From IMG/VR virus record IMGVR_UViG_3300021387_000147: a DNA stretch of 64,000 bases; one strand, written 5' to 3'. Positions 7,983 to 63,600 of the stretch are shown one piece after another. The DNA comes from a virus (lineage: Duplodnaviria > Caudoviricetes). Every line of letters begins with the position of its first letter. Positions within the stretch are counted from its first letter, which is position 1. Position numbers and translations under genes: made by a program. A model generated the notes under the pieces. That model saw only the letters and a list, made by a program, of their open reading frames with translations, was not told where the DNA came from and ran no database searches.

Positions 7983-8158
7983 TAGCTCCCCATTTTGTTG
8001 AGTTTTTCAATAATAGCATGCACTTCAGACTGCAAACTATTATCGAACTTCTTTGAAAGCGCCTTACACTTGGCCCTCATTTCATAACTTGGACCCTTAT
8101 TTGAATACACATAAAGCGCAGTAGCAATTACTTGCTTTTCTTCTTCAGTCAATTCCAT
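7982..8158 (-). CDS. 58-aa hypothetical protein (not in ORF track)
   Basis: MELTEEEKQVIATALY...KLNKMGS; fills the gap with TAATG overlaps at both ends. Confidence 0.7.
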   Translation of the reverse strand: MELTEEEKQVIATALYVYSNKGPSYEMRAKCKALSKKFDNSLQSEVHAIIEKLNKMGS

Positions 8159-9468
8159 TACACATTCCTTCCATTTTCATACACATACTTGAGAGTCGGG
8201 AAGCGGAGGCTATATTCACCAGCCTTATTCTTCGTTTCTTCAAAGTACTTGATTGTCACAGTCTTACCGATAATCTTGGACGGCTTCTTCATCCATTCAA
8301 TTCGCTGTTCACGAGAAAGACCGCTACCAACATTCACCTTATTTCCCTTATGTTCAATGATAAGAGACTTAACACCAGTGAACTTCACATTGCCCTTACC
8401 AGGTTCAGAAGTAGTCATTTCAGCAATTTCAATATCCTTCACAACATATTCATCATCGAAGAACTTCTTAACCTTCAAGAGGTTCTTAGTACGACCAACT
8501 TCAAATTCAACGTCCTTACGAAGCATGAAGCCTTCCCAATCACCATCTTCCACATACTGAGACCAACGGTCAAAATCTTCCTGAGAAGTAATGCGTTCCT
8601 GTTCGAGCAACTTGATAGTAGTGAACTTGTTGCCCTTAAACATTTTCTGCATTTCCTTATAACGTTCAGAGAAGATAGCAGACTTTGTCTTCATTTCGAA
8701 TTCCTTCAACGTCACAAAGTCAAAAATCTGATAGCACGGATTTTCAATAGTCCAATTCTTCTTCTTAATTTCCTTCATGATCCAATCGAAGTGCTCATCG
8801 CCATTTTCGTCAACAATGCAAAGTTCACCATCGAAAACATAATTGCCAGTCGGAAGATTACGAACAAGCCATTCCACACCTTCCTTAACATTGTCGAGAG
8901 TAGTAAACGGCTTTCCCTGACGAGAAATAAAGTCAACAGAAACATTCTTAGAAGTCTTCTTAACCATTGCAACGCAACGACAACCATCACACTTACGAGA
9001 AGCAAAGAAAGTACCATCAATCGGATTTACACCCTTTACTTTGTCAAGAAGATGAGCAAGAGTGACAGTAAATTCAGCAGTGGCTTCCTCACCGATTAAC
9101 TTGTCGAAAGAAGCCTTAGAAAGACCAATCGTCAACTTACGCTGAAGAATTGCCTTCAAAATTTCATGGTCAGCCTTGACAAAACCACCAATAGTCTTTT
9201 CAACGAGAGCGATAGCATCATTGCCAGTCACTTCACGAGCATTCAGCTTATCCAACATTTTGTGGAATTTCTTATAGTCGTGGTCAATCGTATCCCAACC
9301 GCCCTTAGTAGGCATATCAAACTTCTTAACGCCGTAATTACGGTCCTTGTTGTAAGTGTCTTCGTAAATCTGCTTGATGGTATCATTGATATTGTCATTC
9401 ATAATGGCAGACTTTTCAGCAGTGCCAGCAGTAGAAGAAATCTTAGAGAAAAGCTTACGAATTTCCAT
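8158..9468 (-). CDS. lig: ATP-dependent DNA ligase
   Basis: SRKCDGCRC (KxDG), FDGEL, WEGFMLR, LLKVK, VGSG, SLRFP motifs; start at MEIRK after GAGG RBS and promoter. Confidence 0.93.
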   Translation of the reverse strand: MEIRKLFSKISSTAGTAEKSAIMNDNINDTIKQIYEDTYNKDRNYGVKKFDMPTKGGWDTIDHDYKKFHKMLDKLNAREVTGNDAIALVEKTIGGFVKADHEILKAILQRKLTIGLSKASFDKLIGEEATAEFTVTLAHLLDKVKGVNPIDGTFFASRKCDGCRCVAMVKKTSKNVSVDFISRQGKPFTTLDNVKEGVEWLVRNLPTGNYVFDGELCIVDENGDEHFDWIMKEIKKKNWTIENPCYQIFDFVTLKEFEMKTKSAIFSERYKEMQKMFKGNKFTTIKLLEQERITSQEDFDRWSQYVEDGDWEGFMLRKDVEFEVGRTKNLLKVKKFFDDEYVVKDIEIAEMTTSEPGKGNVKFTGVKSLIIEHKGNKVNVGSGLSREQRIEWMKKPSKIIGKTVTIKYFEETKNKAGEYSLRFPTLKYVYENGRNV

Positions 9469-9498
9469 ATTTAAACCTCTTTTAATTTTTACAAGTAT

Positions 9499-9605
9499 AA
9501 TATAAGTATTTTGGAATGTCCTGTCAACCCTAAAATGTGTAAAATATTGTTTACAATACCAAAAAAAGCGCCCTTGGAGACGCTTTTTGTAAATTTTTAT
9601 TAACA
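9499..9605 (-). promoter_or_regulatory. Conserved promoter + operator (copy 2, two boxes)
   Basis: TTGACA(9522-9527)-N17-TATATT(9499-9504); boxes at 9538-9555 and 9588-9605 (1 mismatch). Confidence 0.85.
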
Positions 9606-9621
9606 TTCTACGAACAATATG

Positions 9622-14287: not shown

Positions 14288-15328
14288 TTATTCTTCCTTT
14301 AAAAAGTCGTTAATAATTTGTTCATGATGGAATGCCAGTTTAGGCAGTTCATCGATTTGGAACCATCTTGCATCACACGCATCATCCAAACCCTTTACTT
14401 TGTCCATATCCTTTTTGGAGACACGCACACTAAATGCAACGTCAACAATCTTCATACGAGGATCAAAGTTATGGCCATAAGTCTTGATTTGTCTGAAATA
14501 CTTCGGATCAATATCAATTCCAGTTTCTTCTTTGAGCTCACGCTGAGCACCAAAATTCAAGTCTGCATCAGTCTTTTCAAAAAATCCACCAGGCAATGCC
14601 CAATAATTCTTATATGGATAATTTCCACGACGAATTAGCAAAATCTTATCACCATTGTAAGCAACCGTGTCTGTAGTCACACTCGGCTCACCCCAATGAT
14701 TCTTTTCCTTCTTAACTGCATATTCCTTAAGGAATTCCTTTTCCTTTTCATTGTAATCATTTTCATTCTGAAAATAAAGTGCATTGTCCTTAATATAACG
14801 GAATACAACATGTGTAATGTAATCTCGAACGTCACTGTAATGGCATTCAGGATTTTTAAACAAAATTTCACGAACTGCTGACGAAGAAATTCCATCAGTT
14901 GCATCTTCAGCACCAATGAAAGTCACATTTGGATTTATACCAGCCGGCAGTGTAATTTCATCATTATCTTCACGATAAAATACCAAAAATTCATAATGCT
15001 TCAAAAGCAAATCCCAATTTACCCATTTTCCAGCGCAAAGCGAATGCCATTCATCTTCACCCATACAAATCGTAATCTTTTCACCACGATAATGAGCATC
15101 AAGATATGCATAAGTTCTTTTGTCTTGAATTACAATTTCATGTGCATCCAAAGACTTCTTGACCATGTTTAGGCGGTCATTTACAGAAACATTATAATTC
15201 TTTTCATCATTTTTGACAATTCCAATAATTAACTTATCAGAATTTCTCATTTCTTTCTTAATAGTGCGGATAATTGCTTCATGCGCTTTCGTAATCGGAT
15301 CAAAAGTTCCACCGTAATAGTAAATCAT
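14288..15328 (-). CDS. nadD: Nicotinate/nicotinamide nucleotide adenylyltransferase fused to a Nudix (ADP-ribose pyrophosphatase-type) domain
   Basis: GGTFDPITKAH, MGED, ISSSAVRE; WALPGGF...RELKEETG Nudix box, DPR, GLDDA..ARWF..DELPKLAFHH. Confidence 0.88.
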   Translation of the reverse strand: MIYYYGGTFDPITKAHEAIIRTIKKEMRNSDKLIIGIVKNDEKNYNVSVNDRLNMVKKSLDAHEIVIQDKRTYAYLDAHYRGEKITICMGEDEWHSLCAGKWVNWDLLLKHYEFLVFYREDNDEITLPAGINPNVTFIGAEDATDGISSSAVREILFKNPECHYSDVRDYITHVVFRYIKDNALYFQNENDYNEKEKEFLKEYAVKKEKNHWGEPSVTTDTVAYNGDKILLIRRGNYPYKNYWALPGGFFEKTDADLNFGAQRELKEETGIDIDPKYFRQIKTYGHNFDPRMKIVDVAFSVRVSKKDMDKVKGLDDACDARWFQIDELPKLAFHHEQIINDFLKEE

Positions 15329-16961: not shown

Positions 16962-16987
16962 AAGACACGCTCTTTCGAACGTATCTT
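16962..16987 (-). terminator. Intrinsic terminator with GAAA tetraloop
   Basis: AAGATACGTTC-GAAA-GAGCGTGTCTT then TCTT, directly after the RNA ligase stop. Confidence 0.6.
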
Positions 16988-18236
16988 AAATAGAATAGTT
17001 AGGATTTTTCACCTTGAAAGAAACATTGTAATCATCTTTTAGACGCAATACAAATCCTTCTCTCTTGTGCTTCAAATTGTTTCCAAATACAGTATTCTTA
17101 TCAGACTGTTGCAACATAATATCTGCACCAGAGACAAATACTCCCTGTTCATTTGTATGACCTTCTGGAAGCTTGTAATGTTCATCCAGAACTGGAACAA
17201 ATGGCAAATCCCATTTCTTTGCGAAAGCGATACTTTCATCGAAGTTCAACTTTACCCACTTTCCTTCAACCTTCTTGTAGAAGTCGAAGAAATATACTTC
17301 TGTTCTCTTCAATTGGTAGATATTTCCCTGAATTCCTGGTCCAACATGTTCACCACGGCAGAACCATTCTCCAGGAATATTCTTAATCTTTTCATCCAAA
17401 TGAAGTCTCTTGACAGTGTCCCAGAAACCATGAGAATTACCATTAGGATTTAATTCACGAGTTCTAGAACATACGCCAATTCGCTTGGTCTTTCTTCCAA
17501 ACCAACCATTAACAATTTCAGAGTATACAGTGATATTCTGACCTTCAAGCTTTTCAGTTGCTACCCATTCCTTGTCTGCGTATTGAGCAAACATCTTAGT
17601 GTAAATCTTCTGCACATTTTCTTCATCAGACTTACTTGGGAATGTTGGATCCCATACTTCCGCAATATTATGACGCTTACGCCAATTACGGAACCACTTG
17701 TATTTCATCAACTTACGGACAAGCCATCCATCCTTCTTACCAGTATTCAATCCTGCTTCTTCTTCATCCTGCACAATTTCTGTAATATTGAACTGAATAG
17801 TGAAGTCCTGACCTTCCTTTACCTTGTCAGTAATTCCAAGATCAACAGGACGGAACAAAATACCCTGAGAAATTACACCAAACTTGGACAACTTCATACT
17901 CTTAATCTTGAACTTCTTATCACGTAAGAATTCAAAGTAAGGATATTTAGATTGTTCTTGAAGTGCCTTCAATGCATGTTCTCTTTCTTCATCGGTCATG
18001 TTCTTACCGATTTCATGATTTTTAAGCAAATTATACTTAATAGACAATTCACTATCAAGACCATCTGGAAGAAGAGAATCAACTTCAACATAAATTCCCA
18101 TATCACCAGGCTTGTATTCGCCCTTCTTTACAACAACAGTGTAGTCCATAACAGTTGCCAATTCAATTCTATCAGCACCTGGAATTTCACGGATTTCCTT
18201 AATCTTTACACCGTATGCCAATTTCTTTCCGTACAT
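16986..18236 (-). CDS. RNA ligase, Rnl2/DRB0094 family
   Basis: N-terminal I..IPGADRIELA.V....VVVKKGEY..GD...Y.EVDSLLP; TEKLEG, VCSR, GEHVGPGIQGN, FFDF, REGFV, SFKV.NP.Y. Confidence 0.9.
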   Translation of the reverse strand: MYGKKLAYGVKIKEIREIPGADRIELATVMDYTVVVKKGEYKPGDMGIYVEVDSLLPDGLDSELSIKYNLLKNHEIGKNMTDEEREHALKALQEQSKYPYFEFLRDKKFKIKSMKLSKFGVISQGILFRPVDLGITDKVKEGQDFTIQFNITEIVQDEEEAGLNTGKKDGWLVRKLMKYKWFRNWRKRHNIAEVWDPTFPSKSDEENVQKIYTKMFAQYADKEWVATEKLEGQNITVYSEIVNGWFGRKTKRIGVCSRTRELNPNGNSHGFWDTVKRLHLDEKIKNIPGEWFCRGEHVGPGIQGNIYQLKRTEVYFFDFYKKVEGKWVKLNFDESIAFAKKWDLPFVPVLDEHYKLPEGHTNEQGVFVSGADIMLQQSDKNTVFGNNLKHKREGFVLRLKDDYNVSFKVKNPNYSI

Positions 18237-36637: not shown

Positions 36638-37168
36638 TTAAGCCAAAATTACAAGTTCTGCCAGTTCTCGACAAGGCTGTGGAATATCCTTTCTCTTCAA
36701 AAGCATTTCACAAACATTCTGATACATACGCTTTTGAGCATTTTCCTTAGGCATATCCCAAGAATTGTAAACCATGTCGGCCAGCTTTATCAGCAGTGCT
36801 TCTTTAGAAATAGAGCACAGCTTTTCAGTCATATATTCAGTCTTTCCAAGTTCTTCAATCGTATGCTTATTATTAGTCAATTCCAATACAAGTTCTGCGA
36901 CTTCTTCACTTCCAGATACAACTGCAATTTCTTCATAACTTGTATCAGTATCTTCCAACAAGTCATGACCAAACGCTGCATTTATCTGAACAATGGAGCC
37001 GCCATATTTCTTAACCAACCATGCAACACCACGCGGATGCACAAAATATGGCATGCCACTTCCCTTACGTTCTTGATGAGCATGACGGCCTTTTGCAAAG
37101 TAATACATTGCTCTGCATTCTACTGGAAAATCCTGAGATTTTGCTTTCTTAAACATTGCTGAAAACAT
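36638..37168 (-). CDS. Stand-alone RelA/SpoT-type HD hydrolase (Mesh1/small alarmone hydrolase-like)
   Basis: H..Q.RK.SG.PY..HP..VA, HDLLEDT, IKLAD..YN. Confidence 0.88.
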   Translation of the reverse strand: MFSAMFKKAKSQDFPVECRAMYYFAKGRHAHQERKGSGMPYFVHPRGVAWLVKKYGGSIVQINAAFGHDLLEDTDTSYEEIAVVSGSEEVAELVLELTNNKHTIEELGKTEYMTEKLCSISKEALLIKLADMVYNSWDMPKENAQKRMYQNVCEMLLKRKDIPQPCRELAELVILA

Positions 37169-38397: not shown

Positions 38398-39582
38398 TTA
38401 AAATGCGGCCTTAAAATTATAAACCGGTTTAATGATTTTTTCAATTGTCACAGTTGGCTCAATCAAAGAAACGATTTCTTCCATTGGCTTATATGCCATA
38501 GGACTTTCATCCACAGTAGCAGAACTAACACAAGTCGTGTAAATTCCCTTCATTGCTTCCTTATAGTCCTTCATAGAAATAGAATTCTTTGCATCTGCTC
38601 TTGTCATCAATCGACCAGCACCATGAGGAGCACTATAATTCCAATCAGGATTTCCCTTACCAACACAAATCAAAGAACCATCTCTCATATTCATTGGAAT
38701 AATGACACGTTCTCCTTCCTGTGCAGAAATGGAACCTTTTCTCAAAATCATATTCTTCAAATCAATGTAATTATGGATAGTTTCAAACTGTTCTGTCACC
38801 TTGAAACCCATTTCCTTAACAATTACATCCAACATTGCGGCTCTATTCTGTGATGCAAATCCTTGGACAATTTCCATATCATGCAAATAACCTTCCAAAT
38901 GTTCACCAGTTAAATAAGACAATTCCTTTGGAACACTGAAATGGTCATAGTCCTTTAACAATTCCTTGATTTCAGCATCAGTTTTGCCTTGATTTTTGTA
39001 TTGTGCCACAATTGCGCCACGTTCATCTGTGAGCTTAGCACAATCCTTAATCGCAATGTTCTGCCAGTATTCACAAACGGCTACTCCAAGATGACGAGAA
39101 CCGCTATGGATAACGACGTAGAACTTTCCTTCATCATCCTTGTCAACTTCGATGAAATGATTACCTCCGCCAAGCGAACCAATTGAAAGCAATTCCTCTC
39201 CACGAACATCTGCAATCAAATCATCCAAAGAAAAATCCTTTGCATAACGATGCTTATATTGTCTATGTTCCTTTCCAGATGGAATCTTTTCCTTAATTAC
39301 CTTATCAAGTTTACCAAATTCAATAAACTTGTCTTTGAGCTTTGCAACAAGCATTCCACAGCCAATATCTACACCTACAAGATTTGGAACAACTTTATTA
39401 GTAATAGTCATTGTCGTTCCAACTGTGCAACCTTTTCCAGCATGCACGTCAGGCATAATACGGACATTAGAATCCTTAGCCCAACACTGACACATCATAT
39501 TTAAAATCTGTGAATATGCTGCGTTATCAATATTATCTGTAAACACTTTTGCTGTGTTATATTTTCCTTGAATATCTAACAT
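38398..39582 (-). CDS. rtcB: RtcB RNA ligase
   Basis: MPDVHAGKG, VGVDIGCG, GSLGGGNHFIE, HSGSR, HNY, RKG, SAPHGAGR, DESPMAYK. Confidence 0.96.
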   Translation of the reverse strand: MLDIQGKYNTAKVFTDNIDNAAYSQILNMMCQCWAKDSNVRIMPDVHAGKGCTVGTTMTITNKVVPNLVGVDIGCGMLVAKLKDKFIEFGKLDKVIKEKIPSGKEHRQYKHRYAKDFSLDDLIADVRGEELLSIGSLGGGNHFIEVDKDDEGKFYVVIHSGSRHLGVAVCEYWQNIAIKDCAKLTDERGAIVAQYKNQGKTDAEIKELLKDYDHFSVPKELSYLTGEHLEGYLHDMEIVQGFASQNRAAMLDVIVKEMGFKVTEQFETIHNYIDLKNMILRKGSISAQEGERVIIPMNMRDGSLICVGKGNPDWNYSAPHGAGRLMTRADAKNSISMKDYKEAMKGIYTTCVSSATVDESPMAYKPMEEIVSLIEPTVTIEKIIKPVYNFKAAF

Positions 39583-55780: not shown

Positions 55781-58700
55781 TTAAAACTCATCTTTCATTA
55801 TTCCTTCCCAACACGATTGTCTATAATCTAAAATCTTTCTAAGTTTAGATAATTGCTCTGGACTATTTCCATAATAGATATAACCTTCATATACAATCCA
55901 AAAATTCATTGTTCCATCTGGACCACCAAATCCAAATGCTCCTTTAAAGTCAGCATATAAAGATTGCCATTTCTTATATTCATGCACAGTAATTTTATCA
56001 GGTGGTCCAAAAGGATTGAAGAAACCAACTGTCATTTCACTCATTCAATAACCTCTTTTACTGTTGGTCTTTTAGAAACAAGCTGAGTAATTTGTATTCT
56101 CTGTGCTTTATCTGGTAAGTAATAACAAAATCCTTGATATTCAACAATAGCATCTATACCAAACATCATGATACTTCTCATAGTGTCCCAAAATTCATTT
56201 TTATCATGTTTAGGGTCACCTTCATAGTAAACAACTATATTAGGATTCTTTCCTCTACCCCATGTTATTGTTCCAATATAATCACCTATCACTTTGCATT
56301 CCTTTGTAATTAAATTCACATAGAAAATCCATCCAATCTGGATTATATTTCAAATTATACAAATGACTATGATAAGAAGCAACTAAAATAGATTTTCTAT
56401 ATTGATTATTATCAAACATTTTTAAAAAATCTAAATTACTTCTATACTTACGTAATGCAGTAAAGATTTCTTCTTTATCAAAATAATCATCTTTATAAGA
56501 TGCTGCATACATATTAGAACGTGATTTGGTAATATCAGTAAATACAACTGCTATACTATCTGGGCGATGGTCTGCACCAATATCTAAAAATTCATCTAAT
56601 GAAGTTCTCATAAATCTGGACATCCTTGATAATTTAAAGCATGTATAAATTCTTGCCAATCAGAATCAAATTTTACATTATAAAGTTTATCATGATAAAG
56701 TATTAAAAATATAGAATCTTCATATAATTCAAAATTGAAAGTTTTTAAAAAACCTAAATTTCTATGATAACGCAGCGCACAATTAAAAATTGCTTCTTTA
56801 GTCTTATAATTATCTTCATAATTAGCCATACTTATATCATTTAAAGATGTTATATCAGTATACAACATAATTGCTTCATCTGGTCTTTGATCTGATATAG
56901 GATGTGAAAATACTTCCATAGTACTCATACTTTTAATTCCTTAATTAAGCGCTGTTTAACTTGTCTTAATCTATTAATGTCAGTGCAATCCCAAATATAA
57001 CCATCATATTCAACAAAGAAAATTTCATCGCCAACTGTAGGATAGTAATCAAATTCATGTTCAACATTAGAAATCTTAGTCCATAACGAATATGGGCTTA
57101 AACACTCATGAAATTTAATTTCATCATCATAATCAGGTACTTTGTAAATTACTGCGTATTTCTTCATGGTTCCATTCCATTTGCAATCATTGCTCTAATC
57201 AATTCCATTGCATTTTCACCATTAGGTTCTGTTAAATTGTAAATATATCCATCAAATTCAATTAACAAATATTGCAAATTATAGACATAAGATTGGATTT
57301 TTGTAATCATGTTTATAATTTCTTGTTCAGAAGAAACTTCAGCACACATAGGTCTTTCATTTGTTGATTTTGGAATTGGTCCTGACCAAACTAATGTTGC
57401 TTTCATTTTGTTTGCATCCTTTCTTCTTGTATTTTCTTTCTATATGAATACAATTCTTCATATAATATAGCATTATCTTTTCTTGCTTTTGTTGTTCCAA
57501 AATCTGTAGCATTATAAATTGTTCCATTAAATTCAACAATAATATAATTAGGGTTATACAACATATTTTGCAAATGAGTTAAATTATCAATTATATCATC
57601 AATATCATTATATTCTTTATAACGAGGCGGAAGATTTGAATATGTTCCCGCCTTATTATTATATGCATCCCATACAATTGTCCCTAACATATATAAAGCT
57701 CTCTTAGTTCCTTTAATAACCATTCATTTGCTGCTTCTAATTTTTCATGATTTAAGAAATCATTAAATTTATCCATATTATCTTCATCTGTCACATTAAA
57801 TACATATCCATGATATTCAACTAAAATATAATCAGGTTCAACAAATGGACGATGCTGTAATCTTTTAATTTCATTCAACATTGTTTCTAAATTTTCATAT
57901 TCTTTATACATAGCATGTGTACATTTATCTTCTTCATTACAAATTATTACACAGTTATGAAAATGCCAAGTTATAGTTCCTATCATATTTTCCTTTATCT
58001 GAGCCAATCATCAATTTTTCTTAATAATTCTTTTGATTCTTCTGAATTAAAATTTGTTGCATCATAAATCATTCCATCAAATTCAACAAGAATATAATCA
58101 GGTCTATATAAAAAATATTGTAAATCTATTATCTTATAACGTAAATTTTGAATATTATTAAATTCGCAAACATTTGGATAAGGAGACTGTATACATCTAG
58201 GTTGATCCTCATGTGCTGTATTTGTATAAATTATTGTTGCTGTCATAAAATACTTTCCTTCATGTAATGTATATCAATCCAATCATCAATAATTTGTATT
58301 ACTTTTGGATCTGTGCCATTATAAATCTTACCATCAAATTCAACCAAAAGATAATCAGGTGAATATAACAAATATTGAAAGCTTTTCAATTTATTTCGTA
58401 ATTTCTCCATATCAGTGAATTCCATAACTCGCGGTTTTTCTATTTTAAAATTTTGCAAATTACGATTATGCACAACATTAAAAACTTGTTGTATAGATTC
58501 ATTTGAAAAAACTATTGTTCCTATCATTAATAAATCCTTAATTCAAAATCATGTAAAAAATTTCTATAAGCTTTATAATCAGTCAAATTGTAAATATATC
58601 CATCTAATTCAACAAGCAAACTATTTCCATCTAAACTTCCATATAATGTTCTTAAATATTCTGCTACCTTTTGAATAATTGCATAAAATTTTAATGGATC

Positions 58701-58847
58701 ATCAAATTCAATCCAAATATAATTTTCTTTACTAACACCTGATTTTATAACACCTGAACCACCAAATGGATAATAATTCTTTGAAAGAACATCAGATCTT
58801 TGATATATTTCACAAGTATATGCTATTGTTGCATTAAAAGGTTTCAT
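55781..58847 (-). repeat. Tandem array of 11 diverged small paralogous CDSs
   Basis: Shared (Y)(I/L)(L/I)VE(F/Y)DG.IY(N/D).T(D/N)-type motif in every ORF from 55781-56044 to 58527-58847 (most diverged in the four distal copies). Confidence 0.85.
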
Positions 58848-58853
58848 ATAAAC

Positions 58854-58891
58854 AATATACAAAAAAAGCAGGGCTTTGTCAACCCTGCTTT
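58854..58891 (-). promoter_or_regulatory. TTGACA-N17-TATATT leaderless promoter inside a terminator hairpin, heading the paralog array
   Basis: -35 58877-58882, -10 58854-58859, ATG 58847; stem 58865-58873/58883-58891. Confidence 0.8.
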
Positions 58892-59095: not shown

Positions 59096-59449
59096 CTACC
59101 TGTAATTCTTCACAGATTCATTTGTTGGACAAATATTCTTAATGATGAACTGCATTGCAGGATCATAGTCAGTATGTTCATTGTAGAATGCTCTTTCATC
59201 GCCGCCTGCTTCAACATAAAGCATCGGGTCTTCGTCTTCATCAAATTGTTCTAGGGTTACCTTTGCCACATTATTCATGAACTTGACCGTGATGCTGTTT
59301 TCATAACCTTTAATTTTAAGATCATAACCAGTCTTTGGTGCCTCTACCTTTAGGTATCTGTAAAAGTCATACAGTCCAGAATACATTGATGTGTATTCAA
59401 CAAGATACCCAGCATTCTTCAAGATCTGTTTTGCTTCATTTAAATTCAT
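59096..59449 (-). CDS. Leader-family protein
   Basis: MNLNEAKQILKNAGYLVE; start reassigned to 59449. Confidence 0.75.
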   Translation of the reverse strand: MNLNEAKQILKNAGYLVEYTSMYSGLYDFYRYLKVEAPKTGYDLKIKGYENSITVKFMNNVAKVTLEQFDEDEDPMLYVEAGGDERAFYNEHTDYDPAMQFIIKNICPTNESVKNYR

Positions 59450-59457
59450 GTTATACC

Positions 59458-59943
59458 TTATGCTTCGTAATCTTCCATTGTTGAGTAAATCCAATTATAG
59501 ACTTCTTCAATATTTTTATCTACTCTAGTCAATTTGAATTTTTTAGCTTCAATTACTCCATTATCTTCTAAAGATACTTGAATAAAACCAGCTTCATCAA
59601 AATACTTTACAACAAACATTAAACTATTAAAGAAATACTCTACTGGCTGGCATGCTCTTTTTAAATCATAATCATAAGCATGACGTTTCCAATTCATTAA
59701 GTATTCATCAAACTTTTCTTCCAAACCAGTAAAGAAACTTTTAATGTTATAATTCTGTGCATTTAGAACTTTCTTTTCTACTGAATTGTCATAAACACGA
59801 TCGATTGTATCATACATTTTCTTTTTAGCTTTCTTAGTATTTTGTCTTGACAAATCATAAAGCTCATCATCTAATGTTTCAGTATCTTCTGCAATGATAT
59901 AACCATGTTCAATCAATTCTTGTTTAGCTTCATTTAAATCCAT
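59458..59943 (-). CDS. Leader-family protein
   Basis: MDLNEAKQELIEHGYIIAEDTET; AAGGAG RBS. Confidence 0.75.
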   Translation of the reverse strand: MDLNEAKQELIEHGYIIAEDTETLDDELYDLSRQNTKKAKKKMYDTIDRVYDNSVEKKVLNAQNYNIKSFFTGLEEKFDEYLMNWKRHAYDYDLKRACQPVEYFFNSLMFVVKYFDEAGFIQVSLEDNGVIEAKKFKLTRVDKNIEEVYNWIYSTMEDYEA

Positions 59944-59959: not shown

Positions 59960-59967
59960 TATTTATA
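59960..59967 (-). promoter_or_regulatory. T4-type late promoter TATAAATA
   Basis: Exact consensus between terminator and RBS. Confidence 0.7.
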
Positions 59968-59976
59968 TAAAAGAAA

Positions 59977-59999
59977 AGACGCTTAAGTCTTAAGCGTCT
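59977..59999 (-). terminator. Intrinsic terminator
   Basis: agacgcttaa-gtc-ttaagcgtct, followed on the minus strand by TTTCTTTT. Confidence 0.7.
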
Positions 60000-60655
60000 A
60001 TAATATGTGGTCTTTTAAATGAATTTGCACCTTCGTTTGCTCTTTCATATATCACTGTAAATGGCTTTGGAATATCTAAATTATTAGATAATATCAATTG
60101 ACTTAAATGTTTTGATCCTTGACTCCATAAAACTGGAAACATACATTGCATAAAATCTTCAATGTTTGCATCAGACATCATACTACAATTATCTAATATA
60201 GTCAAATTTGTAGAATATCCTCTGCATTCATTAGTATTCGATGCTGTACAAATCCTATTTCCTGATTCTAATGTTCTACCCCAAGCTACTTTTTCTTTAT
60301 AATCTTCTTTTAGATATGTTGGTAAATTATCTTTGATAGTATCAATCAGTTTTAAGAATTCTTTACCTGACTTATTTGTCTGTGTATAATATAAAGTATT
60401 AAAACCATACTTAAATATAGAATTCCATAATGCATATAATGCATAAACAGTCGTTATTCCACATTTTGGTCTAGCGCTAACTAAATGATTTCTTGTATCA
60501 CAATTTACTTTTAAATTTTTATGGAATGCTTCAAGTAGTTCTTTTTGCCAATCATATAATTCCATATTATTACACATGCAAGCAATCTCTGCAAATAAAA
60601 CAGGATCATCTTCACATGCTAATACAATTTTTGCTTCTTCTATTTTCTTAATCAT
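59990..60655 (-). CDS. Truncated T4 gp17-like terminase ATPase domain with degenerate catalytic motifs
   Basis: C.DDPV.FAE, LYDWQ, RPKCGITT, LP.YL, LESG, RGYS.NL.ILDN; no nuclease domain. Confidence 0.8.
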   Translation of the reverse strand: MIKKIEEAKIVLACEDDPVLFAEIACMCNNMELYDWQKELLEAFHKNLKVNCDTRNHLVSARPKCGITTVYALYALWNSIFKYGFNTLYYTQTNKSGKEFLKLIDTIKDNLPTYLKEDYKEKVAWGRTLESGNRICTASNTNECRGYSTNLTILDNCSMMSDANIEDFMQCMFPVLWSQGSKHLSQLILSNNLDIPKPFTVIYERANEGANSFKRPHIIDA

Positions 60656-63600
60656 GAATTATGCACACTCTTAATATATTCTAAACAAAGTTCTTCATTC
60701 TTCTCAGTAAAAATCGACATAACCTTACTGAACCATGGATCAAATGCGCCAGAATTAACCCTGGCATAATTATATAGTAAGTCTGATATTCTCCTACCAT
60801 AAATGTCCCAAATGACCTCAGGAGCGCTTGTGCGCGATTCTAAATTAACAATTTTAAAGTCATTCAATAGTTTAGCATCTTGAGTATTTGCAATCATTGT
60901 ATTTACTACTATATTAAAATTTCTCATCGCTGCATATCCTCCTCATCGTAAGCTTCATCATAAACATCCAAAATCCAATCATCTTCTGCTTTGATTTCTG
61001 CTTCTCCATTTGGGTTATCATTCATATCACTTCTATCTATATCATGATACATATCACGTAATGTTTTCTTACGTTGAATACGCTTTGTCTTTTTCAATCC
61101 ATTTTCATCAGCTGTCCATGATTTAGTCAAACGAATTGCCTTATGCCATTCTTCATCTGTGAAACCATATTTCTTATAAAGAGTTGCACTGAATTCTTGC
61201 CAATCAGACATAGAAATAGGATGTTTCTTATCCCACTCTCTAATGAAACGAATTAGCTTCTTTTCAAATCTGTCTTTTTGTGTATTTTTCATACCATATT
61301 ATTCACTTTCTTAACAAATTCACCACATATCTTTTGTCTTTTTTCTTCCTCAGTAATTTCCTTATACTGTGCACTAAATAAATCTTTAGGGTATATATTT
61401 ACTTCAGGTTCCAAGGTTGTACACTTATATGGATTTGCATAAGAATTATGTCTATTCAATTCTCTAATTTTATTAGCAAACATATTTGCAATATAATCTT
61501 CATATAAGTCTAAATACTTCTTTTCATGATCCTTATATTTAATTCTAACTGCATCCAAATATTGAGCGGCCTTTACAGGATTTAATTTTAACCAAATTTC
61601 AGAACAACCAATATCAATAGTATCACTCATTCTTAAATCTTCCATTTCTTTGAAGAAGTCTAAATCTTTAGTACTATTAAATCTATTGATACATGACCTT
61701 GCAAAATAACAAATACCATCAATGAATTCATTAATTTCATTAATATCATTTGTTTCAATAGTAAGCTTAAACCATTGCTTATCTACTCCAATTCCATATT
61801 CGCCTTTATTCATGATAGTCTTAACAGCATCATAAAATGATGGCCAATGAGAAAGCTTAGGACTATATAAATTTACATTATAATTTGGATGATTTACAAC
61901 TTTCTGAAGTAATTCACCGATAACTTTAGATTCAGTTTTAATCAATGCAGTAATTTCACAAACTTGATACTTTGTATTAACATCCTTTGTTGTAAACCAA
62001 AGACCTACATTATCTTCAGTCAAATTTTTATCTTTTAATCTATTACGAAACTTTGTTAACTCTGCACTGATTTGATCTCTTGCAAGACCAAGTCTATCAT
62101 TCTTTTCTACTTGTTCTTCAGTATCTTCTTTTTTCTTAGTAAAAGGCCACATTAGTCTTCTCCTTGTTTCCATTCATTTCTTATTTCAGTGAAAACATCA
62201 TCATTTTCATTCTTATGGTCATGCTCAAATGGAATTCCTGCACCAAGTTTAATCTTATCTTTGTATTTGTCTGCACAATGTTTCATAAAATCTTTATAGA
62301 ATTCTTTTTCTTCTTGAGTCATTGGACCATCATCCCTTGTTTTTGCCATATCTAATCTCCTGCATTTTTCTGATAAATCCACCTGGATCCTTTAACTCAT
62401 CCAATTCATCTCTCCATTCCTGAACCTTCTTTTCTGAAGCTTTATCTAACTTCAATCCAAAGACTGCCATCAATGCATTTGCACAATCTACAGACTTTAA
62501 CTTTGTTTCTACTGCTTTTATTTTTGCCTGTTCTTCATCATATTGCTTCTGTAGCCTTTCAACCTCTTCTTCCAATTCAGGCAATCTTAATTTATAGATT
62601 TCATTGTAAAGAGCAATACTTGCAAATTCTACTTTTGGGAAGATTTCATCAAATTCCTTTTCAGACAATTTCATGAACCACATTTCAGTTCCACAACCAG
62701 TCACAATTGCAATTGAGTAATTCTTTCCACCAGCACTGATATAATAATGATGTGTATAATCATCATCGTATTCTACTGGTACAACTAACTTACTATTCTT
62801 TCCTGCACTTGAAAATGTAGAATGATTTAACCACTTAAATAATTCAGGATATTTCCATTGTTCGACAATTCCCTTTTTTTCAGTCTCAGCTAATTCACAT
62901 AACTTTTGAAATGCTGATGGAAAAGTCTTAAAATCTTCTAATTCTTTTTTTGCAGTATCTAGAAAAAACTTAATACTCATTGAAACCCCACTTCTTTATT
63001 ATCTTCATAAATGGACGTTCTAAATCTCGAGCATCACCTCTTTTAATGATTTCCTTCTTTAAATTCCTTGAGCTCTTTTGCATGCCAAAAAAAGAACATC
63101 AGCATTAGGATCGCTAAAAATCCAAATACAAATCCTCCTCCTGTTGCCAAACAAAGAACATCAAAGATAAAGAATAATACATCCCATACAATCCAAAATT
63201 TGCAACCAAACAATGTTCTTGATGTGACAATATCTATAAGCTTTTCCTTCATTATTTTACCACCTTTTTATAAAAATCATTTTCTTCAGTCATTAGCTCT
63301 ATTTCATGAGCTTTCCATTCTGTTCCATCTTGTTTCTTCTTAACTTCACAGAACTTATCAGCCAATTCCTTTGTAGAAGCATAATAAGTTTTAACTGGCA
63401 TTCCTGGAGTTCTAATTCCAGTGTATAATGTTATTTGATAAATCTTTTTCATTTCTTAGGCTTCCTTACTTTATGTGTAATACCACAACAAACTACTTCT
63501 TCCTCAACATAATCTTCTTCTGCCTGCTTTGGATGAATAGGAACTGAATGAGGGAAGATCTGTGAATTTGCAGTTGGTCCACAACTACTTACATAATCAC

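Follow-up and report, generated by a model that had tools for sequence, protein, structure and literature searches.

The window analyzed here, a 64,000-nucleotide stretch of DNA from a tailed virus (Caudoviricetes; IMG/VR virus record IMGVR_UViG_3300021387_000147), carries on its minus strand a gene, P0001, for a protein with the ATPase fold of the phage large terminase (TerL). We identify P0001 as a stand-alone pseudo-ATPase, a paralogue of the T4-type large-terminase ATPase domain that has no nuclease. The window DNA matches a 299-kb metagenome contig, NODE_17, with 100% identity across 14 kb, and its source is a large T4-like phage of the sheep and cattle rumen, relatives of which are present in rumen, gut and sludge metagenomes. 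The gene and the motifs within it are:

59990..60655 including the stop codon, minus strand: coding sequence of P0001, 221 amino acids (aa), dead paralogue with the TerL ATPase fold (open reading frame call, homology and structural model)
60545..60547, minus strand: retained adenine-recognition Gln, Q37, corresponding to gp17 Q143 (gp17 alignment)
60449..60478, minus strand: degenerate Walker A motif or P-loop, SARPKCGITT, in gp17 LSRQLGKTT (gp17 alignment and translation)
60185..60223, minus strand: Arg-Gly (R145-G146), then degenerate Walker B motif, LTILDNC (gp17 alignment and translation)
60080..60094, minus strand: degenerate C (coupling) motif, ILSNN, in gp17 IITTT (gp17 alignment and translation)

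A sequence-only reading of the window had placed an intact open reading frame (ORF) at 59990-60655, collinear with the N-terminal domain of T4 gp17, and on both points our results agree with it. Translation of the window gives an intact minus-strand frame of 221 aa, which matches PHROG 5989, "terminase large subunit", with an E value of 9.8e-16; none of the Pfam terminase models, including Terminase_6N, was reached even at E values up to 10. A tblastn search of P0001 against cultured phages returned 939 records with every match at the TerL gene, and these TerLs, from T4-like, cyano- and jumbo phages, covered 91-95% of P0001 at 25-29% identity. As judged from these sequence comparisons, P0001 is homologous to the ATPase domains of T4-type TerLs, at a level far above chance. 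In a phmmer search of the PDB, residues 13-214 of P0001 aligned with residues 137-334 of gp17 (2o0h, 3cpe). An AlphaFold2 (AF2) model of P0001, for which the earlier reading had asked, reached a predicted local distance difference test score (pLDDT) of 94.9 and a predicted template modeling score of 0.92 with a 139-sequence alignment that is itself made up of TerL relatives; from just 21 close relatives of P0001 the pLDDT was 33.6, so that a deep alignment was required. The top Foldseek matches of the model in the PDB are the gp17 ATPase domain structures 2o0j and 2o0h, with a query-normalized TM-score of 0.82, a root-mean-square deviation of 2.0 A and an E value of 8e-12, and its best matches in BFVD are large terminases. 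Based on the model and the HMMER alignment, the fold of P0001 is thus that of an ASCE/RecA-like TerL ATPase, collinear with N-subdomain I of gp17. Megablast of the P0001 region against cultured phages gave no match, and no relative of P0001 was found in IMG/VR.

P0001 and gp17 (PDB 2o0h, 2o0j and 3cpe; PHROG 5989) have the same fold, collinear over gp17 137-334, and have in common the adenine Gln, the Walker B Asp and an Arg-Gly pair before Walker B, but P0001 is without gp17 R162, K166 and E256, the TTT coupling motif, most of N-subdomain II and the nuclease domain. The motifs were read off an ungapped HMMER alignment to gp17 and cross-checked by translation. The P-loop reads SRQLGKTT in gp17 and RPKCGITT in P0001, where P63 stands in place of R162 and I67 in place of K166; the P-loop Arg and Lys were found at the aligned positions in 86 of 86 active relatives. 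In Walker B, the IDE of gp17 corresponds to LDN in P0001, with D255 retained as D155 and the catalytic E256 replaced by N156. In the C-motif, which reads S/T-T in active relatives, T285-T287 (TTT) of gp17 are replaced by S190, N191 and N192. What has been kept is the adenine Gln (Q37), the Walker B Asp and an Arg-Gly ten residues ahead of Walker B (gp17 R245-G246), whose Arg, R145 in P0001, we take to be the equivalent of the trans-acting finger R139 of P74-26 TerL. The C terminus of P0001 corresponds to a position near residue 340 of gp17, so that little of N-subdomain II and nothing of the nuclease domain is present; no nuclease or other terminase piece was found in the window besides P0001. 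The sequence-only reading had thus correctly noted the change from DE to DN in Walker B, that from TTT to SNN in the C-motif and the absence of the nuclease domain. It was also right that the Walker A Lys is lost, but the insertion that it implied there is unneeded, and it overlooked the loss of the P-loop Arg. A lysine two residues ahead of the P-loop Gly, K64, is invariant in the P0001 family. We considered it as a substitute Walker lysine, and P0001 may retain residual nucleotide binding; ATP hydrolysis in the absence of the Glu is very unlikely.

In the protein database, P0001 has 63 relatives that are 80-91% identical to it, almost all of them exactly 221 aa long. Among 67 full-length relatives, all are intact and 221 aa long, 106 of the 221 sites are invariant, and the motif substitutions of P0001 are invariant or nearly so. 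The invariant stretches of the family include GITT, ILDNCSM, SNN and the C terminus, and the first 40 residues together with the Q-motif, which are common to true TerLs, are almost invariant among the 67 members. Loci that code for an identical P0001 protein are 5 to 7 substitutions apart, all of them synonymous. The ratio of nonsynonymous to synonymous polymorphism (pN/pS), summed over pairs, is 0.36 for P0001 overall, by comparison to 0.04 and 0.35 for two upstream genes, and is distributed along the protein as follows:

Residues 1-115: pN/pS 0.21
Residues 116-148: pN/pS 0.86
Residues 149-175, the former Walker B segment: pN/pS 0.07
Residues 176-186: pN/pS 1.64, from few sites
Residues 187-221: pN/pS 0.45

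The two fast-changing patches are a beta-hairpin and a loop ahead of the former C-motif strand. According to these sequence data, P0001 is a tightly held scaffold with two fast patches that is under purifying selection, and is not in neutral decay; neutral evolution, which the sequence-only reading had named as an observation that would refute its interpretation, is contradicted by the overall value and by the values of 0.07-0.21 in the core. The description of P0001 as an inactive mimic is supported insofar as the catalytic residues are gone, their replacements are fixed in the 67 relatives and the gene appears to be under purifying selection. A 182-aa metagenomic variant, P0064, in which the N-terminal part of an upstream 91-aa ORF is fused to the C-terminal 115 aa of P0001, is either a deletion allele or an assembly chimera.

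We next consider the terminase proper of this phage. Searching IMG/VR with the junction peptide of a split TerL led to two contigs, L023 and L024. On L023 (3508-5740), two head-to-head genes encode the real TerL, split into an ATPase half and a nuclease half that correspond to Terminase_6N and Terminase_6C in Pfam. The ATPase half has 359 aa and intact motifs (RQTGKTT, VDEF, STP), and ends in FAQEYA followed by an intein-like N-fragment, CLYGDEKV... The nuclease half has 348 aa and begins with an intein-like C-fragment of about 101 aa that contains TPDH and ends in HN|C, followed by an RNase H-like nuclease. A sequence index places a stretch matching the TerL ATPase half in 84 of 87 short words 86,725 nucleotides before the start of the window in the same genome, about 146 kb from P0001. 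The linkage of P0001 to this TerL rests on the index, with its 84 of 87 words, on matching lengths and on the junction peptide; among assembly contigs, the 299-kb NODE_17 carries P0001, and the TerL ATPase half is found on others, one of them the 494-kb JAPZCB010000009.1. On L025, a 494-kb contig of an NCBI assembly, a 454-aa DUF7487 gene is inserted between the two TerL halves.

The intact terminase that the sequence-only reading had proposed to look for is thus present, as a split TerL 86.7 kb before the window start according to the index. The same reading had named as one threat to its own interpretation that P0001 might be the only terminase gene, in split form. TerL is indeed split in this phage group, but the same genome encodes a distinct ATPase half, in which the Walker A, Walker B and C motifs are intact and an intein N-fragment is present, and P0001 is without an intein fragment, so that it cannot be spliced to the nuclease half, and stops short of the ATPase/nuclease junction. 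The possibility that P0001 is the only terminase ATPase of the phage, one piece of a split gene, is therefore refuted, and we regard it as virtually nil.

P0001 is closest to the ATPase-only genes of its phage group, which splits TerL into ATPase and nuclease halves. Its nearest relative outside the family is P0066, a protein of 263 aa that is 33% identical (E value 5e-29), carries GITT and DD as its motifs and has its C terminus exactly at the junction of ATPase and nuclease. P0066 in turn is 38% identical to the true TerL ATPase half of the lineage (E value 3e-59) and, by BLASTP, 47% identical to P0094, a stand-alone copy of 310 aa in which the motifs are intact and the tail resembles the intein N-fragment without its Cys. 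In related phages, P0066 and P0094 are each encoded by a solitary gene on the opposite strand, within regions of accessory genes. A further short active relative, P0068, is encoded within a structural module and is likely to be one half of a true split TerL. The simplest reading of these similarities, which are unrooted, would be that a duplicated ATPase half lost catalysis stepwise, from a P0094-like through a P0066-like protein to P0001. A grouping of the P0001 family with P0073, P0117 and P0089 in a quick tree was unsupported, may reflect long-branch attraction and was not used.

Dead TerL copies are not confined to this lineage. A full HMMER scan of 1.8 billion representatives yielded 1066 relatives at E values up to 0.001, and classes were counted among the best 139 of these as aligned. 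Outside the P0001 family, 27 of the proteins are without both the Walker A Lys and the catalytic Glu. All but one of these 27 are shorter than 400 aa, compared with 27 of the 86 proteins that have both residues (Fisher p 7e-10). They retain the adenine Gln (26/27), the P-loop Arg (26/27), the Arg/Lys-Gly (24/27) and the Walker B Asp (22/27), and supported branches of the tree force at least 3 origins of the dead state. Genomic context was inspected for seven dead paralogues: XaC1_353 and, from the aligned set, P0073, P0101, P0202, P0149 and P0091 are positioned directly upstream of an intact TerL gene, some overlapping it, and P0066 stands alone. The slot directly upstream of TerL is the position of the small terminase gene in T4. 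Large phages have thus acquired dead TerL paralogues without a nuclease domain recurrently and convergently, and the usual position of these paralogues is the small-terminase slot. In the Xanthomonas jumbo phage XaC1, a search for a T4 gp16-type small terminase (PF11053) gave no match, a result too weak to claim that the small terminase has been replaced.

XaC1_353, annotated as "large terminase protein", and P0073, P0101, P0202, P0149 and P0091 are fast-evolving proteins of 228-271 aa that, like P0001, are short and have neither the Walker A Lys nor the catalytic Glu nor a nuclease domain. Unlike P0001, they are encoded immediately upstream of, and often overlapping, an intact TerL gene, and keep the RQ of the P-loop and mostly the S-T of the C-motif. 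They represent separate duplications, each nearest to its own TerL with identities of up to 58%. The dead copies diverge much faster than the TerLs of their phages, at 30% versus 83% and 41% versus 81% identity. At the locus of P0202 (L041 4779-7662), the TerL downstream of the dead paralogue is itself split: an ORF of 294 aa separates a Terminase_6N gene (298 aa) from a Terminase_6C gene (365 aa). A gene for a Gp23-type capsid protein of 702 aa adjoins. A different deviation is seen in P0078, P0171-P0173, P0184, P0197, P0198, P0205 and P0206, which are full-length TerLs with the sequence K-x-R-Q-x-G-(I/L/A/S)-(S/T)-T; they have no Lys at the canonical Walker A position but one five residues before the Gly, and their Walker B DE is intact. 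These presumably resemble the deviant Walker A of lambda gpA.

Our literature search for terminase paralogues, pseudoenzymes and decoys found nothing besides T4 vs.8. This protein resembles the gp17 ATPase, keeps Walker A and B and is toxic together with EcAvs2 (Evans et al. 2026, PMC13601566). It activates EcAvs2 on co-expression, and its authors raise a possible anti-defense role (PMC13601566). We confirmed its motifs, RQSGKS and IIDE, in NP_049732. Like P0001, vs.8 has about 220 aa, is ATPase-only and is encoded in an accessory region of a T4-like genome, unlinked from TerL (gene 17). By contrast, Walker A and B are intact in vs.8 and neither is intact in P0001, and there is no detectable sequence relationship between the two proteins (BLASTP E value 58, hhalign probability 0.05). 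PHROG 1488 is matched by vs.8 at 1.3e-78 and not by P0001, which is much closer to true TerLs than to vs.8.

By comparison to gp17, P0001 is encoded in an accessory operon that is not of the late type. The features that delimit this transcription unit are:

60652..60927, minus strand: upstream ORF of 91 aa, the stop codon of which overlaps the P0001 start (ATGA); highly conserved, pN/pS 0.04
59967..59999, minus strand: intrinsic terminator with a 10-bp stem (59999-59977), a 3-nucleotide loop and a T-run; the stem overlaps the P0001 stop codon
59960..59967, minus strand: TATAAATA, a T4-type late-promoter motif directly after the terminator, serving the next gene (59458-59943)

The terminator is present in 8 of 8 variant loci inspected, with a single change, to a G-U wobble. 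The motif TATAAATA is likewise conserved in the 8 variant loci, is the only copy in the 20.7-kb locus L003 and marks a transcription-unit boundary; no copy was found in the 10 kb upstream. P0001 is thus the last gene of a multi-gene operon that is without a late promoter and is closed by a terminator. The terminator that the sequence-only reading had assigned to P0001 is real, but it ends the multi-gene operon and does not belong to P0001 alone. The label "early" for the operon rests on the best intergenic promoter match (L003 5838-5866) and the absence of TATAAATA; a scan for sigma-70 promoters found 45 against 60 expected, which is not above chance, and the sigma-70 type may not be that of the host. 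In four metatranscriptome runs from sheep gut, contigs cover P0001 and its operon, although such contigs prove neither transcription, strand nor ends. The contigs from three of these runs, X2-X4, end at 60044, which may reflect strain variation and from which we draw no conclusion. The 91-aa upstream ORF and the other neighboring ORFs have no match in Pfam or PHROG.

Because catalysis is gone and the scaffold is conserved, P0001 probably acts through binding something. Our leading reading, held tentatively and short of even confidence, is that P0001 has no catalytic role but assists or regulates the packaging machinery as a binding partner. It would occupy surfaces meant for a true ATPase domain, on neighboring TerL subunits, the free nuclease half, the portal or an equivalent of the small terminase; alternatively, it might be a dead subunit, as inactive paralogues are in other ring ATPases. 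Such inactive subunits, for example delta-prime of the clamp loader, are dead paralogues kept for binding, and Phytophthora XLP1 is a dead-paralogue decoy; the likeness of either to P0001 is by analogy only. We rank the role as a packaging partner first because in other phages dead paralogues of separate origin are closely tied to TerL, because the conserved N-terminal helices and the Arg-Gly of the domain are kept, and because the usual target of a dead paralogue of an oligomeric enzyme is its active relative. Several observations weigh against it. P0001 is about 146 kb from TerL and in an operon without TATAAATA in 10 kb upstream, and therefore not obviously co-regulated with packaging. It evolves fast, with 33% identity to P0066 where other genes common to both phages are 60-91% identical, and its losses, in contrast to those of the dead copies next to TerL, extend to the RQ of the P-loop and the S-T of the C-motif. 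The patches with pN/pS of 0.9-1.6 fit a conflict interface at least as well. A complex prediction for P0001 with the TerL ATPase half scored 0.09 (mark 0.32) and weighs neither way.

Could P0001 instead be directed at host defense, as the sequence-only reading had proposed? A dead protein made early could bind Avs1-3 or Upx without firing them, or soak these sensors up before the real TerL appears. The non-late operon, the hypervariable patches on an otherwise invariant scaffold and the rapid divergence of dead paralogues relative to TerLs (30% versus 83%, 41% versus 81%) are consistent with this, as is the presence of RtcB, RNA ligase, nicotinamide mononucleotide adenylyltransferase/NUDIX and nicotinate phosphoribosyltransferase (NAPRTase) genes in the region; T4 vs.8 provides an example of a stand-alone TerL-like early protein that is engaged by EcAvs2 and for which its authors raise an anti-defense role (PMC13601566). 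However, binding to Avs and Upx sensors normally activates them, and Upx is activated by the ATPase domain alone, irrespective of catalysis (PMC13601566), so that a mimic should be a liability. EcAvs2 contacts terminase-bound ATP via a bridging ATP (PMC13601566), which the P-loop of P0001 probably cannot hold, SeAvs3 also binds the nuclease domain that P0001 lacks, and no terminase-mimic inhibitor was found in the papers searched. A decoy or antagonist is thus a minority reading, which we consider unlikely without dismissing it. The broader proposal, that dead TerL ATPase copies evolved repeatedly as mimics and that P0001 antagonizes or decoys the TerL-reading sensors Avs1-3 and Upx, appears slightly more doubtful still. 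The same sensor data can be turned around. EcAvs2 contacts bound ATP and SeAvs3 is described as recognizing immutable features of the terminase, so that loss of the ATP site would hide a dispensable paralogue; P0001 could be a TerL-derived accessory protein, comparable to vs.8, with a new early function that has nothing to do with terminase partners or sensors, a protein that lost its ATP site to escape Avs-type recognition or merely as a by-product. Unlinked stand-alone copies with intact motifs (P0094, T4 vs.8) and with dead ones (P0066, P0001), all in accessory regions, agree with a new function, but nothing positive points to an alternative ligand, and the near-invariant N-terminal 40 residues and Q-motif suggest that a TerL-like contact has been kept. 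We judge this possibility to be on a par with a decoy, that is, rather unlikely.

The timing, which is not late, the hypervariable patches and the retained Arg-Gly, which could insert into the site of a neighboring subunit, would also suit a weapon against co-infecting relatives, a dominant-negative subunit that poisons the motors of rivals and spares the phage's own diverged split TerL. This idea is purely inferential and we found no precedent for it; moreover, the TerL-adjacent copies elsewhere would poison their own motor, and we consider it improbable. Nearly as improbable, if not slightly more so, is that P0001 is a functionless duplicate in slow decay. The progressive series from P0094 (intact) through P0066 (Lys and Glu lost) to P0001 (RQ and C-motif lost too, and shorter) is what decay might produce, and an overall pN/pS of 0.36 is not very low. 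Yet none of the 67 full-length relatives is disrupted or departs from 221 aa, 106 sites do not vary among them, the former Walker B segment has a pN/pS of 0.07, loci with identical protein differ by synonymous changes only, and dead copies arose and were retained repeatedly; decay is accordingly disfavored.

No protein of tailed phages is, to our knowledge, more conserved than the large terminase, which is also a main target of pattern-recognition immunity in bacteria. Recognition of terminase-like ATPases that stand alone is recent (T4 vs.8, 2026), and here we describe a dead version, fixed and under selection in an abundant lineage of rumen phages, that accompanies an intact split TerL in the same genome. 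If P0001 is a packaging partner, a TerL-derived non-catalytic terminase subunit would change the view of the packaging motors of large phages. If it interferes with sensing, the mimic would represent a new class of anti-defense protein, and, with a decoy of this kind, a phage would for the first time be seen to use a dead paralogue as a shield for a conserved "pattern" protein. Because XaC1 can be cultivated, the question is open to experiment.

The wider region of the window encodes a DNA ligase, a cytidylyltransferase/NUDIX fusion, an RNA ligase, RtcB and, just outside the window, NAPRTase (window 8158-9606, 14288-15328, 16986-18236 and 38398-39582; L003 3791-5047). This combination of RNA repair and nicotinamide adenine dinucleotide salvage is a repertoire of the kind linked to counter-defense. 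Past the terminator, the first gene (59458-59943, behind TATAAATA) is absent or replaced in the relatives L018 and L016, and this gene and the second (59096-59494, minus strand) share a leader, M(D/N)LNEAKQ.L...GY. Further along the minus strand (56925-58862) is a tandem array of seven small paralogous genes for proteins of 80-111 aa, several of which overlap by 4 bases; the proteins share the C-terminal motif (L/I)VE(F/Y)(D/N/H)G.(I/V)(Y/F/W)(N/D).TD. An HD-domain protein encoded at window 36638-37168 is 91% identical to its counterpart at L020 17619-18149, whereas other genes common to both phages are 33-60% identical, which suggests, at the level of sequence identity, a recent exchange of the HD-domain protein between the two phages.

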